Shown: one piece after another, positions 53,929-63,617 of the stretch | Layout of the letters: every line of letters begins with the position of its first letter | Numbering within the stretch: position 1 is the first letter of the stretch | Origin: Shigella phage SSG23 | Strand: one strand, 5' to 3' | Sequence record: PQ351811 | DNA: 64,000 nt | Program-made: the position numbers and the translations under genes | Notes under the pieces: model-generated | Told to the model about the DNA's origin: nothing | What the model saw: only the letters and a program-made list of their open reading frames with translations | Databases searched by the model: none

Positions 53929-54197
53929 TGAAAATAACCATTATTCAATTATGGTCGGCTACCAGTGAAAACTACGCAGTAGCCGTAGATTATTACGGTT
54001 TACAATATCTCTATGATGAAGCGAGCGCATCATGGCTTCCGGTGCAAGAAAATAGCGATATCTCAAGACCTGCTACTGTATTCGATCCGGGCGTTGTCTT
54101 TATCAATATTGACGAGACAGTAGCAAAACTGCGTAAGAAAGCAATCAATAAGAAAAAGGTGATGTGGGATGAAAGAATATTTGAAACTATTGCGTGA
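53928..54197 (+). CDS. hypothetical protein
   Basis: 89-aa ORF between frd and td. Confidence 0.4.
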   Translation: MKITIIQLWSATSENYAVAVDYYGLQYLYDEASASWLPVQENSDISRPATVFDPGVVFINIDETVAKLRKKAINKKKVMWDERIFETIA

Positions 54198-55401
54198 TGT
54201 TCTTGATAATGGCTGGCCTCGTGAAGACCGAACGGGGGTAGGTACGCTCTCTAAATTCGGCGCAGAGATGCGAATTGACTTAAGCAAGGGTTTCCCCTTA
54301 CTGACAACTAAAAAGATGGCTACAGCCTCTGTAATTGGCGAGTTGCTATGGTTTATGGAAGGGTCGCTGGACCGCCGTCGCTTACAGGAAATTACACGCG
54401 GTAAATTCGATGACGAAGCCTTTGATATTTGGCGCGGTAACTGTCTTGATATGAAAGAAAAGAATCCTTTGCGATTCAACGGCTATAATGTTGGCAATAT
54501 GTATGGTATGGCGTGGCGACGCAAGCCGATTCATCCACACGGTGAAATCAAAATTAAGCGCGTTAAGAGCAAATATACACATACATTTAAGCACCCGTGG
54601 GTAGAAGACTTTACGCCAACCAACGACACAGAAGACCGTTTATGTGCTATCTGGCGTGGTATGCGTTATGAAGAGTTTGATTCTGAATATAATCAATTCT
54701 TAGTAGCAGACCACTGGAAGACTCAATCCAATTTTGTTAATGATGCATACTGCTTGTGGGGATTCCAGGAATGGGTAGATGATGGTTATTTCGGTTATCT
54801 GCTTGATAGTGATTATCTGGGTGGGGATATGTTCGCACCGGATACCACAATCTTTGTTAATATGGACGTAGACACATCAAGCCCTAAAGACGATGAAGAA
54901 TATATCTATCGCCCGAAGATTTGGGAAGACCAGTTACAAAACGTGATTGAACAAATTAAAAATAATCCAACGGATCGCCGGATCATTATTGACTCATGGA
55001 ACGTACAAGGAACACATAATGCTGTATTAGGTGTATGTCATCCTTTCGTGCAATTCTACGTCAATGAAGGTAAACTGTCCTGTATGTGGTTTCAGCGAAG
55101 CGTAGACAGCTTTTTGGGCTTGCCCTTTAACGTCGCCAGCTATGCGCTGTTAACTCACATCATAGCGAAAATGTGCGACCTTGAGGTTGGCGAACTGATT
55201 TTCTCCGGCGGAGATACTCACATTTACAAAAACCACTTTGACCAAGTTATGGAGCAATTAAACCGTGTTCCGTTTGATAAACCAACAATTGAGTTGCCGG
55301 AATTTAAATCTTTAGATGAGGTATTGACAAAAACTCCGAAAGACTTTAAAATTCACAACTATCAAAGCCACCCGGCAATCACCGCTCAAATGGCAGTATA
55401 A
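54169..55401 (+). CDS. td: thymidylate synthase with a large internal insertion
   Basis: ThyA motifs (DRTGVGT, GELLWF, DSWNV, GVCHPFVQFYV, FQRSVDSFLGLPFNVASYALL, GGDTHIY); 410 aa versus about 264-286 for E. coli and T4. Confidence 0.85.
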   Translation: MKEYLKLLRDVLDNGWPREDRTGVGTLSKFGAEMRIDLSKGFPLLTTKKMATASVIGELLWFMEGSLDRRRLQEITRGKFDDEAFDIWRGNCLDMKEKNPLRFNGYNVGNMYGMAWRRKPIHPHGEIKIKRVKSKYTHTFKHPWVEDFTPTNDTEDRLCAIWRGMRYEEFDSEYNQFLVADHWKTQSNFVNDAYCLWGFQEWVDDGYFGYLLDSDYLGGDMFAPDTTIFVNMDVDTSSPKDDEEYIYRPKIWEDQLQNVIEQIKNNPTDRRIIIDSWNVQGTHNAVLGVCHPFVQFYVNEGKLSCMWFQRSVDSFLGLPFNVASYALLTHIIAKMCDLEVGELIFSGGDTHIYKNHFDQVMEQLNRVPFDKPTIELPEFKSLDEVLTKTPKDFKIHNYQSHPAITAQMAV

Positions 55402-58063: not shown

Positions 58064-58231
58064 ATGACCAAATTAAAATGTGTTGCTGTAGATTTTGAGC
58101 TAGCTGATAGCTTTGTTGTCGGTGATGAATATGATGCTCGACATGATGGGACTTGCTACTACGTTAAGGATGAATACGGCGTAGAATGGGCTATTCTTCC
58201 TGATGATAAATGTTTTGAGGTTGTCGGATAA
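58064..58231 (+). CDS. hypothetical small protein
   Basis: ORF downstream of promoter-hairpin at 58004. Confidence 0.4.
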   Translation: MTKLKCVAVDFELADSFVVGDEYDARHDGTCYYVKDEYGVEWAILPDDKCFEVVG

Positions 58232-58404
58232 TGGCTACTGTATGGTTATTGATTGCAATAAGCAATTCAATGTATAATTACGGAAATATGTCAAGCATTG
58301 AATTTGCCACAAAGCAGGATTGCGTTAAAGCTCGCGAGATTATCCGCGAAGACAATAAACGCTTTATGAATCTGTATTGCATTGAAAAGCAGAAGGTGAA
58401 CTAA
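58231..58404 (+). CDS. hypothetical small protein (tandem paralog 1)
   Basis: 57 aa starting MATVWLLIAIS; TAATG junctions on both sides. Confidence 0.3.
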   Translation: MATVWLLIAISNSMYNYGNMSSIEFATKQDCVKAREIIREDNKRFMNLYCIEKQKVN

Positions 58405-58571
58405 TGGCTACATTATGGTTATTGCTTTCCGTTAGTGTCGGCGTATATAATAAAGGAACTGTTACCAGCGTAGAGTTTTCATCACATCAAAGTTGTTTTG
58501 AAGCCATGCAGGAATTGCAACAGGATAGCGAAATAAACAGAAATACTAAGTTCTTTTGTGTTAAAAAGTGA
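58404..58571 (+). CDS. hypothetical small protein (tandem paralog 2)
   Basis: 55 aa starting MATLWLLLSVS; similar layout to 58231..58404 (hydrophobic N-terminus, SIEF/SVEF, C-terminal Cys). Confidence 0.3.
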   Translation: MATLWLLLSVSVGVYNKGTVTSVEFSSHQSCFEAMQELQQDSEINRNTKFFCVKK

Positions 58572-58640
58572 TAGTGAGGTGAATTAATCCTTCTTCTGGA
58601 TACCTGATAAATAATGGTATACAGAAAAGAGGATTTATTC

Positions 58641-59288
58641 ATGAACTTACAAAAACTACACGACGCAATCATAGAAAAAGCGAAGATAAGAGGAACCGTT
58701 GAAGGATATAAGGAAACACATCATATTTTACCGCGATCTATGGGTGGCGGTGATGAAGTCGATAACCTGATTGATTTGACAGCCAAAGAACATTTTGTGA
58801 TTCATCACCTGCTAGCAAAAATTCATGGTGGACCTATGGCGCAAGCATTTGGTATGATGTGTTTGGCAAAAAATGCTAAGACCAATAAAAGAGATTATGT
58901 TGTTTCGTCTAGGGTATATGAACAAGCTAGGGTACTGATATCTGAACAAAGAAAGGGTAAGCCTATGAAAGAAGAAACGCGAAGAAAGATTAGCGAATCT
59001 TCGAAAGGTGTATTGAAATCAGAAGAGACAAAAGCTAAAATGCGTAAACCAAAAACAAAGGAGCACGCGTTAAACATTTCAAAAGCTAGAATGGGAAGTA
59101 AAAATCCTATGTTTGGGAAACCATCGCCAACTAAAGGAATACCACATAGCGAGGAAATGAGAAAGCTGATTGCACAAAGGACAAAGGAAGCAACAATGGC
59201 AGATCCTTGTCCGCATTGCGGTAAAATTACCAATAAAGGCAATGCTCTACGATGGCACTTTGATAACTGCAAAATGAGGAATATGTGA
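58641..59288 (+). CDS. HNH homing endonuclease (MobE-like, free-standing)
   Basis: HNH core (ETHHILPRSMGGGDEVDNLIDLTAKEH), NUMOD3-like repeats (ETRRKISESSKG, EHALNISKARMG), C-terminal CPHCG; sits between nrdA and nrdB like T4 mobE. Confidence 0.75.
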   Translation: MNLQKLHDAIIEKAKIRGTVEGYKETHHILPRSMGGGDEVDNLIDLTAKEHFVIHHLLAKIHGGPMAQAFGMMCLAKNAKTNKRDYVVSSRVYEQARVLISEQRKGKPMKEETRRKISESSKGVLKSEETKAKMRKPKTKEHALNISKARMGSKNPMFGKPSPTKGIPHSEEMRKLIAQRTKEATMADPCPHCGKITNKGNALRWHFDNCKMRNM

Positions 59289-60455
59289 ATGGGAAATACG
59301 GTATTTAATCGTGAACATGTTGATATTATGAATGAACCGATGTTTCTGGGTAGCGGTTTAGGTATCGCTCGTTATGACATTCAGCGTCATCAAGTATTTG
59401 AAGAACTAATTGAAAAATCTCTGTCATTTTTCTGGCGTCCAGAAGAGATTTCACTTGCAACTGACCGCATTCAATATCTGAATATGGGCGATGTTGAAAA
59501 ACGTTTCTTTACAGAAAACTTGAAGTATCAGACATTACTTGATTCTATTCAAGGTCGCGCACCATCCGCAGCATTTGGTCCAATTGTATCTGATCCGACT
59601 CTCGATACATGGTTGCAAACATGGACATTCAGCGAGACAATTCATAGCCGCAGTTATACTCACATTATGCGTAACTGTTTCATTGATCCGGCTAGTGAGT
59701 TTGACCAGATCATCGATAACCCTGCTATCATGAAGCGAGCGGAATCTATCGGGCAATATTATGATGATGTTCTTTATTGGATTCGTAAGTATGAGAATGC
59801 AAAAGAAGATCTCCGCTATTGGGAAGAACGAGACGACCAGACAGCATTAGATGATGCAAGAAGAGTTTTTGAAGATACAAAACGAGATCTGATGGCGTCG
59901 ATTTATCTGTGTGCACACTGCGTTAATGCACTGGAAGCAATCCGTTTTTATGTATCCTTTGCATGTACTTTCAGCTTTGCCGAACGTGGTTTACTGGAAG
60001 GTAACGCGAAGATCATGAAATTTATTGCGCGTGATGAACAACTTCACTTAAAAGGTACACAATACATTATTCGTCAATGGCAAACGGGGGCTGACGGTGA
60101 TGAGTGGAAACAGATTGCGGAAGAACTTGAAGACGAAGCAACGAAAATCTTTCTGGATGTTGTCGAGCAAGAAAAAGAATGGGTAGACCACCTATTCGCA
60201 ATGGGGGCAATTCCTAACCTGTCACCGGAAATTCTGAAAACCTATGTAGAATACCTGGCAGATTCCCGTATGCGTGCTGCCGGACTGAAAAGCCCGTTTA
60301 GTGTTCGTCGTCATCCTTTACCGTGGATGCGTAAGTGGTTAAACTCTGACGAAGTTCAAAACGCGGCGCAAGAAGTAGAGATCATGTATCTGGTATCTCA
60401 GGTTAATACCGATTTAACAGACGACGACTACAACCGATTCGGGAAATATCTATGA
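59289..60455 (+). CDS. nrdB: ribonucleotide reductase small subunit NrdB (class Ia)
   Basis: Di-iron/tyrosyl radical motifs (FSETIHSRSYTHI, ASIYLCAHCVNALEAIRFYVSFA, ARDEQLH); uninterrupted 388-aa ORF. Confidence 0.95.
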   Translation: MGNTVFNREHVDIMNEPMFLGSGLGIARYDIQRHQVFEELIEKSLSFFWRPEEISLATDRIQYLNMGDVEKRFFTENLKYQTLLDSIQGRAPSAAFGPIVSDPTLDTWLQTWTFSETIHSRSYTHIMRNCFIDPASEFDQIIDNPAIMKRAESIGQYYDDVLYWIRKYENAKEDLRYWEERDDQTALDDARRVFEDTKRDLMASIYLCAHCVNALEAIRFYVSFACTFSFAERGLLEGNAKIMKFIARDEQLHLKGTQYIIRQWQTGADGDEWKQIAEELEDEATKIFLDVVEQEKEWVDHLFAMGAIPNLSPEILKTYVEYLADSRMRAAGLKSPFSVRRHPLPWMRKWLNSDEVQNAAQEVEIMYLVSQVNTDLTDDDYNRFGKYL

Positions 60456-60928
60456 TATATTTTGTCGATTTAGATTTTACGATCACAGATCCAACGCATC
60501 GACTAGCTAAGATGCCAACCGAAAATCTTGATAAAGTCGAGTCATGGATCGAATATAACAAGGCATGTGGGGGAGATTCCCCCATTTACGATGTAATTCG
60601 TGTTATCAATGCTCTTTCTGACAACGGTCATTTGATTTACATCCTCACCGGACGAAGTTCACATGCTTACATAGAAACGGTGGAATGGCTGATCGCTAAT
60701 GATGTGTGTTTCGATAAAATCTTTATGAGAGGTCGCAATGATTCCCGTAAAGACTATCACATCAAATTAGAGGTAATTAAATCCTTTGATAAAGATGAAG
60801 TTGTCGGAGTCTTTGAGGATAACCCGGAAGTGATTAAAGTTCTCAGAGAAAACGGCTATCGTGTCTTTGACGTAGGAAATCACAAAGACAAGACACGAGC
60901 GGATATTGCAAATCACGGTCATGATTAA
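60452..60928 (+). CDS. HAD-superfamily phosphatase-like protein
   Basis: N-terminal FVDLDFTIT (HAD motif I, DxDxT), ILTGR (motif II-like) and FEDN near C-terminus. Confidence 0.5.
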   Translation: MIYFVDLDFTITDPTHRLAKMPTENLDKVESWIEYNKACGGDSPIYDVIRVINALSDNGHLIYILTGRSSHAYIETVEWLIANDVCFDKIFMRGRNDSRKDYHIKLEVIKSFDKDEVVGVFEDNPEVIKVLRENGYRVFDVGNHKDKTRADIANHGHD

Positions 60929-60940
60929 TGTTTGTTCAAA

Positions 60941-60964
60941 GTCGCCCATAGTGGCGACTTTTTT
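60941..60964 (+). terminator. rho-independent terminator
   Basis: GTCGCC-catagt-GGCGAC followed by TTTTTTGTT. Confidence 0.65.
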
Positions 60965-60975
60965 GTTATTGGGTG

Positions 60976-61004
60976 TTGACAATCGGATCTTGCCATAGCA
61001 TAAT
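60976..61004 (+). promoter_or_regulatory. sigma70-like early promoter
   Basis: TTGACA, 17 nt, CATAAT; follows terminator at 60941. Confidence 0.5.
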
Positions 61005-61028
61005 ACGCACATCGAAACGGAGGAACAT

Positions 61029-61247
61029 ATGGAAACAGAAGAACAAGTCATTGCATATTTTCATCGTAAAAAGATGAAACTTAGAATCGAAAAACAGTAC
61101 ATCAATCACTATATTGACCGAGTCCACTTAACAAGTACACCTTACCTATTCCGGTTGATAAACCCTCGAAAACGGTGGGATAAGTTGGATAGAAACACAA
61201 AAATAATTGATAAACTCACCCAATGGTGGAATGAATACAACAAGTAA
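61029..61247 (+). CDS. hypothetical protein
   Basis: 72-aa ORF downstream of promoter at 60976. Confidence 0.4.
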   Translation: METEEQVIAYFHRKKMKLRIEKQYINHYIDRVHLTSTPYLFRLINPRKRWDKLDRNTKIIDKLTQWWNEYNK

Positions 61248-61297
61248 AAAAGTAGTTGACACTGAATAACGGGGGTAGTAATATACCCCCATCGAAA
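61246..61297 (+). repeat. 52-bp direct repeat, copy 1
   Basis: aaaaagtagttgacactgaataacgggggtagtaatatacccccatcgaaac, identical to 61523..61574. Confidence 0.85.
61255..61289 (+). promoter_or_regulatory. PeSL-like promoter-hairpin cassette (duplicate copy 1)
   Basis: TTGACA, 17 nt, TAATAT; GGGGGTAGTAATATACCCCC hairpin. Confidence 0.6.
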
Positions 61298-61312
61298 CAA
61301 AGGAGAATCAAA

Positions 61313-61531
61313 ATGAAATTTATCTGCACCGACTCTATCAGCAAACACTTTGTAGTAGGCGAAGTATACGAATCTACTACCATTCGTCAGCGTGACCTGA
61401 TGGGTCGCCTTTACAATCAGCCAGTATTCATTATTGGTGAAGAATTGTTCTACATTGAAAACCGTCCGTGGGTTGCTTTCAATAAACGAGGACGCAAGGT
61501 AGCAAAATTCGAACTTGTCATTAAAAAGTAG
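61313..61531 (+). CDS. hypothetical small protein (paralog of 32953..33159)
   Basis: 72 aa ending KVAKFELVIKK; flanked by an exact 52-bp promoter-hairpin duplicate. Confidence 0.45.
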   Translation: MKFICTDSISKHFVVGEVYESTTIRQRDLMGRLYNQPVFIIGEELFYIENRPWVAFNKRGRKVAKFELVIKK

Positions 61532-61574
61532 TTGACACTGAATAACGGGGGTAGTAATATACCCCCATCGAAAC
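61523..61574 (+). repeat. 52-bp direct repeat, copy 2
   Basis: Exact copy of 61246..61297; the two copies bracket ORF 61313..61531. Confidence 0.85.
61532..61566 (+). promoter_or_regulatory. PeSL-like promoter-hairpin cassette (duplicate copy 2)
   Basis: Same sequence as copy 1. Confidence 0.6.
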
Positions 61575-61601
61575 GAAACTAACTTACTAAGGAGTATCAA
61601 G

Positions 61602-62000
61602 ATGATTAAATTTCAAACTCGCAAAGACGTTCTGGACTTCGTTAAAGTTTTCGGTTACGCTGCATTGCAACATGCAATGGACAAAATGACCATCACCCCA
61701 GATCAGACTATGCTGATCCGTATGGTTAAAGCAACCGCCTACAAAAACGACATTACCCTCTCAGAAATCAACGACGGTAATACTGTCCGCGAGGTGATTG
61801 TTTCTTTCGAATCACCGAAAATTGGCGGTTTTCATACCACGATGTTAGGCGAAATCACTGTCACTGTATACGGGCAAGGTGGCGGAGTGTTCACCGTAAA
61901 AGAAGCGATGGAAAACGGGACACTGAACAAAGAAAAACTGGAATTTGTCCTGAAAATCATCAAGGAGCGTAACGAAGCTCGCGATATTCTGGAAAGTTAA
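61602..62000 (+). CDS. hypothetical protein
   Basis: 132-aa ORF followed by terminator hairpin at 62008. Confidence 0.45.
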   Translation: MIKFQTRKDVLDFVKVFGYAALQHAMDKMTITPDQTMLIRMVKATAYKNDITLSEINDGNTVREVIVSFESPKIGGFHTTMLGEITVTVYGQGGGVFTVKEAMENGTLNKEKLEFVLKIIKERNEARDILES

Positions 62001-62050: not shown

Positions 62051-62512
62051 ATGATTAATGAGCTAATAGAAAACTATGGATTCGTTAAATATTCATGTTT
62101 AGAGTGTAAAGATGGTGATGTGATTCTACCGCCTCAGAAGAACCGTTTAAATGTTCTTTACGCTATTGTGGTTGATGATGAACTGGTATATATTGGTCAG
62201 ACTGTTAATCTAAGAAAGCGGATCAATTATTACCGGACTAGCATTAACAGACAGACACCAACGGCGGATACTCGCAAGAGTAAGAATATTCATAAGGCGC
62301 TAGAGGAAGGGAAGACAGTAACATTCTATTACCGCCAGTGCTTTGAGTTGTACATCGAGAATCCAACGGGTAAGGATATTATAAGCACTGCCGATATCGA
62401 AGAACCTGTTTTGATCACCAAATTTAAACCAGAATGGAACACAAATTATGTCAACAAAAGAAAACAACAAAAAAGTTTTAGCATTGTTCAAAAATCTGAT
62501 GACACTATGTGA
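62051..62512 (+). CDS. GIY-YIG nuclease domain protein
   Basis: LYAIVVDDELVYIGQTVNLRKRINYYR is a GIY-YIG motif; only 153 aa; 3-prime end overlaps the gene 63 start by 65 nt. Confidence 0.55.
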   Translation: MINELIENYGFVKYSCLECKDGDVILPPQKNRLNVLYAIVVDDELVYIGQTVNLRKRINYYRTSINRQTPTADTRKSKNIHKALEEGKTVTFYYRQCFELYIENPTGKDIISTADIEEPVLITKFKPEWNTNYVNKRKQQKSFSIVQKSDDTM

Positions 62513-63617
62513 CGGATCTGATACGTTCTATTACAAAGATGAAATTACGGCAATGCAAACCCGTATGCGCATTTTTAGTTATCTGTACTTGAGCAAACCT
62601 GAAATGTGGAATAAACCAGATGCGTTAGAGTGTCGCGGGATCATGTTTGAAATCGATGATAAAGACCGACCAGTCCGCATTGCATCTCGTCCTATGGAGA
62701 AGTTTTTTAATTTAGGCGAGAATGACCGCGCTCGCTTTAAGCCGGAAGAGGTGGAAATGGTCATGGACAAAATGGACGGTAGTCTAGTAAGCACATACAT
62801 TGATAACGGCTATGTTCAGTTGAAGTCTAAAGCGGCCTTGTACTCAAGCCAGGCAGAGAGAGCAAACGGTCTTCTGTATTCAGAGAAGTATGCGGAACTA
62901 CGTGCTAAGATCGCCGATATTGGATCTGATTATACTTTCAACTTTGAATATACAGCACCAAGCAACCGAATTGTTGTAGAATACAACGAACCGTCGCTAA
63001 CACTTCTGAATGTACGCCATAACGTCACAGGAGAGTATGTACCGCATCAAATTCTATTCGCCGATGCAATCCTGCGTCCTCATCTGGTAAATGCGTTACA
63101 GGTTGATTCAGCGCGGTTTAGCAATATTCTTGATGAAGTTCGGACCGCAGAAGGTATCGAGGGAATTGTTGCACGAACCAAAGACGGTCAGATGTTCAAG
63201 GTGAAAAGTGAATGGTATATTGGTGTGCATAACATTAAAAACACATCGATGTTTCCTAATAACCTGATCTACTATGTCGTAGAAAGCGAAACCGATGATT
63301 TGCGTGCTGCATATGAAGGTGAACCGGAAGCACTGGAACGAATCGAGCTATTCGAGGAAGCATTCAGGTCTATTCTTCGCAATGCCTTCACGACAGCAAC
63401 AGAATTTTATAACGCACACGCGGGAGAAGACAGAAAGACATATGCATCCAATGCGACTATCGAATCACGTAAACATGGTGATGCACAAGCATATATTTTC
63501 ATGTGTCTGATGATTGCATTTGATGGTCTTGATTATGACCGTATTCTGGCTTCAATGAAAACTTACTATCTACGGAATTATAAGAAACTGATTCCGGCTG
63601 ATAAGATTGATTGGTAA
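62448..63617 (+). CDS. 63: RNA ligase 1 gp63 (tail fibre attachment)
   Basis: PDALECRGIMFEID, PVRIASRPMEKFFNL, KMDGSLVSTY (ligase lysine motif) and FLRNYKKLIP match T4 Rnl1. Confidence 0.85.
   Translation: MSTKENNKKVLALFKNLMTLCDGSDTFYYKDEITAMQTRMRIFSYLYLSKPEMWNKPDALECRGIMFEIDDKDRPVRIASRPMEKFFNLGENDRARFKPEEVEMVMDKMDGSLVSTYIDNGYVQLKSKAALYSSQAERANGLLYSEKYAELRAKIADIGSDYTFNFEYTAPSNRIVVEYNEPSLTLLNVRHNVTGEYVPHQILFADAILRPHLVNALQVDSARFSNILDEVRTAEGIEGIVARTKDGQMFKVKSEWYIGVHNIKNTSMFPNNLIYYVVESETDDLRAAYEGEPEALERIELFEEAFRSILRNAFTTATEFYNAHAGEDRKTYASNATIESRKHGDAQAYIFMCLMIAFDGLDYDRILASMKTYYLRNYKKLIPADKIDW

Follow-up and report, generated by a model that had tools for sequence, protein, structure and literature searches.

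The place directly 3' of nrdB in Shigella phage SSG23 (sequence record PQ351811) raises the question of what this phage encodes where T4 carries denA, the gene for endonuclease II. In the 64,000-nucleotide stretch that was analyzed (hereafter, the window), the place is held by a 158-aa open reading frame (ORF), which the original prediction described as a HAD-family phosphatase in the position of denA, in a phage without this nuclease. The ORF and the HAD motif I near its start are confirmed, and motifs II, III and IV are also present. The notion of a T4-like phage without denA, however, is false: the window holds a denA ortholog, and the HAD gene has been added to the T4 layout without taking the place of denA. 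The HAD gene is real and, judged from its sequence, probably functional; it was rightly recognized as a phosphatase gene and is present already in public annotation. It is probably an ordinary accessory gene acting on nucleotides, and we lean toward a role in the deoxynucleotide pool. The sequence of the window matches Shigella phage SFHK24 (PQ351812.1; a Krischvirus of the RB49 group, Straboviridae) at 100% identity and ECD7, JSE, RB49 and about 50 other genomes at 95-98%, and the HAD gene is annotated in the public records of about 60 Krischvirus genomes. The features at the locus are the following.

59289..60455, + strand: nrdB, small subunit of ribonucleotide reductase (Pfam Ribonuc_red_sm, E 6e-44)
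60452..60928, + strand: stand-alone HAD (DxDxT) phosphatase gene, 158 aa, a homolog of the Pnkp phosphatase domain without a kinase domain
60938..60961, + strand: terminator-like stem-loop with a T-run, 10 nt past the HAD stop codon
60976-61004, + strand: near-consensus early-type promoter TTGACA-17-CATAAT, which lies within a diverged PeSL-like cassette (60976..61024) and begins the next transcription unit

The TGA of nrdB and the ATG of the HAD gene overlap as ATGA at 60452-60455. Because this overlap is followed by the terminator-like hairpin and then by the early promoter, the nrdA-nrdB unit is read as ending with the HAD gene as its last cistron. The gene thus lies in the nrd unit and not in the pseT cluster, in contrast to T4 pseT, and a genuine PseT ortholog is present as well. 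Farther downstream on the same strand lie three small ORFs, denA and rnlA.

61029-61247, + strand: small ORF of unknown function (phrog_18672), preceded by a PeSL-like promoter cassette
61313-61531, + strand: small ORF of unknown function (phrog_14957), preceded by a PeSL-like promoter cassette
61602-62000, + strand: small ORF of unknown function (phrog_10173), preceded by a PeSL-like promoter cassette
62051..62512, + strand: denA (endonuclease II) ortholog, 153 aa, GIY-YIG (phrog_1111, E 2e-52), directly upstream of rnlA
62448..63617, + strand: rnlA, RNA ligase 1 (TIGR02308, E 2e-182), directly after denA, as in T4

The product of the denA ortholog shares 50% identity with T4 DenA across 137 residues (E 1e-47), and the gene carries the denA annotation in ECD7, JSE and RB49. 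It had been set down beforehand that a denA gene found nearby would count against its absence, and the gene was found inside the window rather than outside it. A published survey gives the same picture, with a profile for Krischvirus that is positive for denA and dCTPase and negative for hydroxymethylcytosine (hmC), denB, ndd and alc (PMC12115623, Table 4). In the literature searched, no specific commentary on denA or pseT of RB49 was found. What stands of the original claim is that the gene directly 3' of nrdB, the T4 position of denA, differs; this position is the one point in favor of a functional replacement of denA in a phage that has given up the degradation of host DNA. With denA neither displaced nor lost, and annotated in related genomes, that replacement is refuted, and we give it practically no probability. 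The accompanying proposal that this phage group does not modify cytosine is consistent with the same table and with the missing alc: no alc is present between rnlA and pseT.3 in the window end and the adjoining DNA (L002:13372-15022), which fits a phage whose cytosine is unmodified, yet denA is kept.

The order in T4 is nrdB, denA, rnlA, alc, pseT.3, pseT.2, pseT.1 and pseT, and T4 denA begins 3 nt past nrdB. Compared with this arrangement, the HAD gene and the three small ORFs lengthen the nrdB-denA interval by approximately 1.6 kb. Within this interval, two copies of a 55-nt repeat (61247-61301 and 61523-61577) are 98% identical, and a diverged copy lies at 60976-61024. In the repeat, a GGGGGTA...TACCCCC stem extends across the -10 region of a near-consensus sigma-70 promoter (TTGACA-17-TAATAT), and these promoter/stem-loop repeats match the type of PeSL, the mobile regulatory cassettes known from RB49 and phi1 (PMC2839356). 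Because PeSL-type cassettes precede the small ORFs, the segment between nrdB and denA is considered a plastic region of the genome. The start codon of rnlA is uncertain: the start at 62448, taken from the SFHK24 annotation, overlaps denA by 65 nt, and the ECD7 start lies 44 nt later.

The HAD protein begins with MIYFVDLDFTIT (over a longer stretch, MIYFVDLDFTITDPTHR) and scores 51.4 bits against Pfam PF25109 (HAD_PNKP), above the curated cut-off of 27.6. It aligns by hhalign with residues 155-300 of T4 PseT, the phosphatase domain of T4 Pnkp, with a probability of 99.4%, and a HAD fold with a Rossmann-like alpha/beta core is confidently predicted, in agreement with the fold originally proposed. 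Identity to this C-terminal 3'-phosphatase domain (PDB 1LTQ, 2IA5, 5UJ0) is approximately 21%; a BLASTP comparison with T4 PseT gives no match, and the relation is seen by profile comparison only. The motifs are placed as follows.

60467..60481, + strand: motif I, D6-L-D8-F-T10, with nucleophile Asp6 equivalent to T4 Asp165 and acid/base Asp8 to T4 Asp167
60524..60535, + strand: four-residue insertion N25-L-D-K28, a subfamily marker by alignment column counts
60647..60655, + strand: motif II, T66-G-R68, equivalent to T4 Ser211-Gly-Arg213
60728..60766, + strand: segment R93...D97.R99.D101...K105, in invariant or nearly invariant columns, equivalent by hhalign to T4 Arg246, Asp250, Arg252, Asp254 and motif III Lys258
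60815..60823, + strand: motif IV, E122-D123, equivalent to the T4 Mg2+ ligands Asp277-Asp278 and followed by Asn124 at the position of T4 Arg279

Among 62 homologs, D6 is invariant and D8 and T10 are at least 90% conserved; K105 of motif III and D123 of motif IV are also invariant among the homologs. The essential or architectural residues R176, D187, R213 and D254 of T4 Pnkp correspond to R17, D42, R68 and D101, which are conserved in the HAD protein (the roles of the T4 phosphatase residues are taken from PMC3592404). The conserved catalytic set indicates that the protein is very probably active, as a Mg2+-dependent phosphomonoesterase with an Asp6-phosphate intermediate. In such a cytoplasmic enzyme, Asp6 would serve as the nucleophile and Asp8 as the general acid/base, Thr66 and Lys105 would stabilize the phosphate, and Glu122/Asp123 would hold the metal.

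The protein differs from T4 Pnkp in that the N-terminal 5'-kinase is missing, approximately 13 additional residues follow motif I, Asn replaces Arg279, and Phe replaces the Gly of motif I. Because motif I already starts at residue 6, the protein has neither a kinase domain nor an N-terminal signal peptide, and domain searches of the 158 aa revealed no P-loop and no kinase match. The label "polynucleotide kinase" is therefore a misnomer for this gene, which bears kinase-type names in related genomes (RB49p229, SFHK24 CDS0214; pseT_2 in ECD7), and it is equally wrong for more than 1,000 stand-alone phage homologs that have no kinase domain. Two other phosphatase classes were considered and rejected. 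A secreted class B acid phosphatase (PF03767) is disfavored by a score of 24.6 bits against a cut-off of 27 and by the missing signal peptide, and the bacterial class B/C acid phosphatases (AphA, e(P4)) and plant VSP possess a larger helical cap that the HAD protein lacks. For a GmhB-like heptose phosphatase, the only match, to phrog_1238, is weak and partial.

The phage additionally encodes a full-length PseT of 292 aa (L002:14144-15022, about 0.8 kb past the window end; match to T4 Pnkp 1LTQ, E 8e-71). In light of the pseT_2 annotation in ECD7 and the Phe for Gly substitution in motif I, the HAD gene could be taken for what is left of a pseT phosphatase domain that was duplicated and is now decaying or inactive. 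We regard this as very unlikely. The HAD protein is only 29% identical to the phosphatase half of the phage's own PseT, so the gene is not a recent pseT duplicate; T4 PseT, as stated above, is not matched by BLASTP, and the closest relatives are stand-alone proteins of T1-like phages (45-47% identity). The catalytic residues are all intact, and Phe9, which replaces the Gly of nearly all relatives, is fixed across the Krischvirus copies, including the 84%-identical P0002. Comparison with ECD7 reveals 12 synonymous and 0 non-synonymous differences, a sign of strong purifying selection, and the ratio of non-synonymous to synonymous rates (dN/dS) against RB49 is about 0.09-0.10, similar to that of nrdB. 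A pseudogene or decaying duplicate is contradicted by these selection and conservation data.

The distribution of the family places the HAD protein among its relatives. A word-indexed homolog search returned 3 proteins only, and an exhaustive HMMER scan returned 4,562 representative clusters at E<=1e-3, the best of which are mostly stand-alone proteins of 140-170 aa with kinase-phosphatase fusions of approximately 300 aa scattered among them. By tblastn, the family is present in 1,620 phage records; copies with at least 90% identity are confined to Krischvirus, the next-best matches are from T1-like Drexlerviridae (45-47% identity), and Pap of phage P1 is also a member. One 593-bp ENA contig encodes a predicted 156-aa protein (P0003) that matches 28% of the HAD protein at 91% identity and carries a Clp protease Pfam domain; this contig is probably an assembly chimera.

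Gene contexts were compared in a sample of 80 IMG/VR loci with family members, in which the ORFs were searched with seed proteins, together with 150 representatives. In 21 of the 80 loci, which are T1-like and encode HAD proteins 37-45% identical to that of SSG23, a P-loop kinase of approximately 190 aa follows the HAD gene, in most cases directly and often with a 4-nt overlap. This partner is gp1-like, that is, a deoxynucleoside monophosphate (dNMP) kinase, and not Pnk-like. A second context (8/80; 33-41% identity) is that of PhiM1/KP34-like phages, with a MazZ-like gene (PF18909, phrog_801) immediately after the HAD gene. The third is linked to RNA repair (12/80; 28-35% identity), with an Rnl1-like RNA ligase within approximately 2 kb, usually upstream. 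Pnk-type kinases with an ORF of their own were detected in 7 loci, 6 of which are among the 12 ligase-linked ones, and loci with a ligase, a separate Pnk kinase and a HAD phosphatase are in effect a split Pnkp. Such a row of three ORFs was observed on IMG/VR contigs of uncultivated phages (L044, L048, L055, L056 and L063), at about 3.6-6.4 kb in each locus. Natural fusions join the HAD domain with the kinase (P0007, P0024) or with PF18909 (P0018).

In a neighbor-joining tree, the HAD protein of SSG23 groups with the kinase-linked and MazZ-linked proteins and P1 Pap, and all of the ligase-linked and Pnkp-fused phosphatases, the phage's own PseT included, lie on the other side. Of 100 bootstraps, 85 reproduce this split, and in 91 the nearest labeled neighbors of the HAD protein are nucleotide-linked. 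Two sequence characters follow the same division. The insertion at 25-28 and a residue other than Arg at position 124 are common to the nucleotide-linked group and the HAD protein, whereas by column counts the insertion is absent from the RNA-repair-linked and Pnkp-fused relatives. The repair-linked proteins all have Arg at position 124 (15/15), as do 14/16 of the representatives that carry an N-terminal kinase; this Arg is missing in 8/8 representatives with a C-terminal fusion and in all of the approximately 16 nearest relatives. With respect to the pair formed in T4 by Arg246 and Arg279, the HAD protein has R93 at the first position and Asn at the second. In 2007 Zhu et al. reportedly found a sulfate bound between these two T4 residues and proposed it as a mimic of a penultimate backbone phosphodiester of the polynucleotide, which is taken here as a lead only.

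These results define two groups, one RNA-repair-linked with the Arg279 equivalent and one Arg-less with gp1-like kinase or MazZ partners or, here, nrdB coupling. The HAD protein belongs to the latter, a distinct stand-alone subfamily linked to nucleotide enzymes and defined here by tree position and signature residues. Neither this subfamily split nor the association with deoxynucleotide enzymes was found described in the literature searched. The closest relatives, the T1-like stand-alone phosphatases (Drexlerviridae, phrog_415; 37-47% identity), have the same length, the insertion and a non-Arg residue at 124; they are uncharacterized and often mislabeled "polynucleotide kinase". Their genes precede or are fused with a gp1-like kinase, whereas the Krischvirus gene overlaps the upstream nrdB and has no adjacent kinase. 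The HAD and MazZ-like pairs of PhiM1/KP34-like Autographiviridae, in which the partner is a dATP/dGTP diphosphohydrolase, represent the same subfamily with a tightly coupled nucleotide-pool enzyme and differ from the Krischvirus gene in partner enzyme and virus family. P1 Pap, a putative acid phosphatase that matches the Pfam family at 30% identity to the HAD protein, is likewise stand-alone and on the same side of the tree, but it is uncharacterized and belongs to a temperate phage, with no nucleotide-metabolism neighbors.

The two roles originally put forward for the protein, a nucleotidase acting on the dNMP pool and a polynucleotide 3'-phosphatase, are the two still standing. Of these, a deoxynucleotide-pool phosphatase is the one we consider somewhat the more probable, because the gene is coupled to nrdB, its relatives are partnered with dNMP kinases and MazZ, the protein falls in a separate clade without the Arg, and a full PseT is present elsewhere. 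The protein is a phosphatase-only relative of the Pnkp domain and a second, distant copy beside the complete PseT, and its subfamily has lost the equivalent of T4 Arg279 and gained four residues. Translationally coupled to nrdB, the HAD gene would close the frd-td-nrdA-nrdB precursor unit, and its enzyme would dephosphorylate substrates at the deoxynucleotide level in the management or salvage of the deoxynucleoside triphosphate (dNTP) precursor pool. Candidate substrates are 3'-dNMPs or deoxynucleoside 3',5'-bisphosphates (pdNp), in keeping with ancestral Pnkp chemistry, or a particular 5'-dNMP. The phosphatase of T4 Pnkp already hydrolyzes 3'-dTMP at 24 per second (PMC3592404); little change would be needed to obtain an enzyme that acts on 3'-dNMPs or pdNp and supplies a dNMP kinase. 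The other option is a specific 5'-nucleotidase. If a mononucleotide substrate is correct, the family would represent an uncharacterized and widespread deoxynucleotide step across T1-like, KP34/PhiM1-like, P1 and RB49-like phages, and the signature would provide a simple sequence rule for annotating the subfamily.

Several points weigh against a pool enzyme. Neither a gp1-like dNMP kinase nor a MazZ-like gene lies beside the HAD gene in SFHK24, ECD7 or RB49, and neither adjoins the gene of the closest homolog outside Krischvirus (P0005, 47% identity). The SSG23 protein is basal in the nucleotide-linked clade of what is a simple neighbor-joining tree with 85% support. In the literature searched, nothing specific was found on a characterized stand-alone phage phosphatase of the HAD_PNKP kind. 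A phosphatase beside a dNMP kinase could be a futile pair unless the specificities differ, and gene neighborhood counts for less in phages than it does in bacterial operons. Furthermore, in sequence and fold the protein is nearest to true polynucleotide phosphatases, and Arg93, the counterpart of T4 Arg246, is kept.

The last point leads to a less probable alternative, in which the enzyme is a polynucleotide 3'-phosphatase or 2',3'-cyclic phosphodiesterase that heals RNA or DNA ends as an auxiliary or specialized partner of PseT and RnlA, acting for example on DNA 3'-phosphate nicks or on other cleaved tRNAs. The nearest matches in sequence and structure are bona fide end-healing phosphatases (4XRP Pnkp1 and T4 Pnkp), the Pnkp architectural residues R17, D42, R68, D101 and R93 are all retained, other stand-alone members of the family adjoin an RNA ligase and a separate Pnk kinase (the 12 loci above), and rnlA and pseT are merely 1.5-3.5 kb from the HAD gene. 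However, the phage already has a complete PseT, and the HAD gene resides in the nrd unit, with a terminator and a promoter lying between it and denA-rnlA. In addition, the protein falls outside the group of ligase-linked and kinase-fused phosphatases and lacks the Arg that these relatives largely keep, and the kinase that accompanies its own relatives is gp1-like rather than Pnk-like.

The position of the HAD gene in an accessory segment flanked by PeSL cassettes is one point in favor of a third explanation, that the enzyme is a counter-defense factor breaking down an immune messenger or danger signal derived from nucleotides, such as the m6-dAMP that triggers PUA-Cal-HAD. One study describes a defense that responds to m6-dAMP arising when the chromosome is degraded in a denA-dependent manner (PMC12871103), and the family is present in phages that degrade host DNA (T1-like phages, the T7-like PhiM1 and the denA-positive Krischvirus). 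We nevertheless consider this role improbable: it is pure inference, with no link of the HAD protein to any defense system; the counter-defense reported in that study consists of DNA-mimic proteins, not phosphatases; and a general dNMP phosphatase would waste precursors. A version that is slightly more improbable still combines this idea with the subfamily data: the Krischvirus and T1-type phosphatases would be a Pnkp-derived lineage that moved to free deoxynucleotides and clears dNMP danger signals such as m6-dAMP after DenA has acted. If true, such removal would blunt nucleotide-sensing abortive infection while the nrd/gp1 machinery supplies precursors.

Some further observations concern the genes upstream of the HAD gene. 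An HNH/NUMOD3 homing endonuclease gene (58614-59288, +; phrog_655, E 5e-56) lies directly upstream of nrdB; it is present in SFHK24 and absent from ECD7 and RB49, and the T4 nrdA-nrdB interval holds another homing endonuclease, mobE. Two tandem paralogous small ORFs of unknown function, at 58231-58404 and 58404-58571 (+), also lie between nrdA and nrdB and encode 57 and 55 aa with 36% identity (E 3e-16). The thymidylate synthase gene (54169-55401, +; 410 aa) gives a split Pfam match, which points to an in-frame insertion of about 130-140 aa near residues 118-250. Intein-like termini are absent from this insertion; T4 td instead carries a group I intron.

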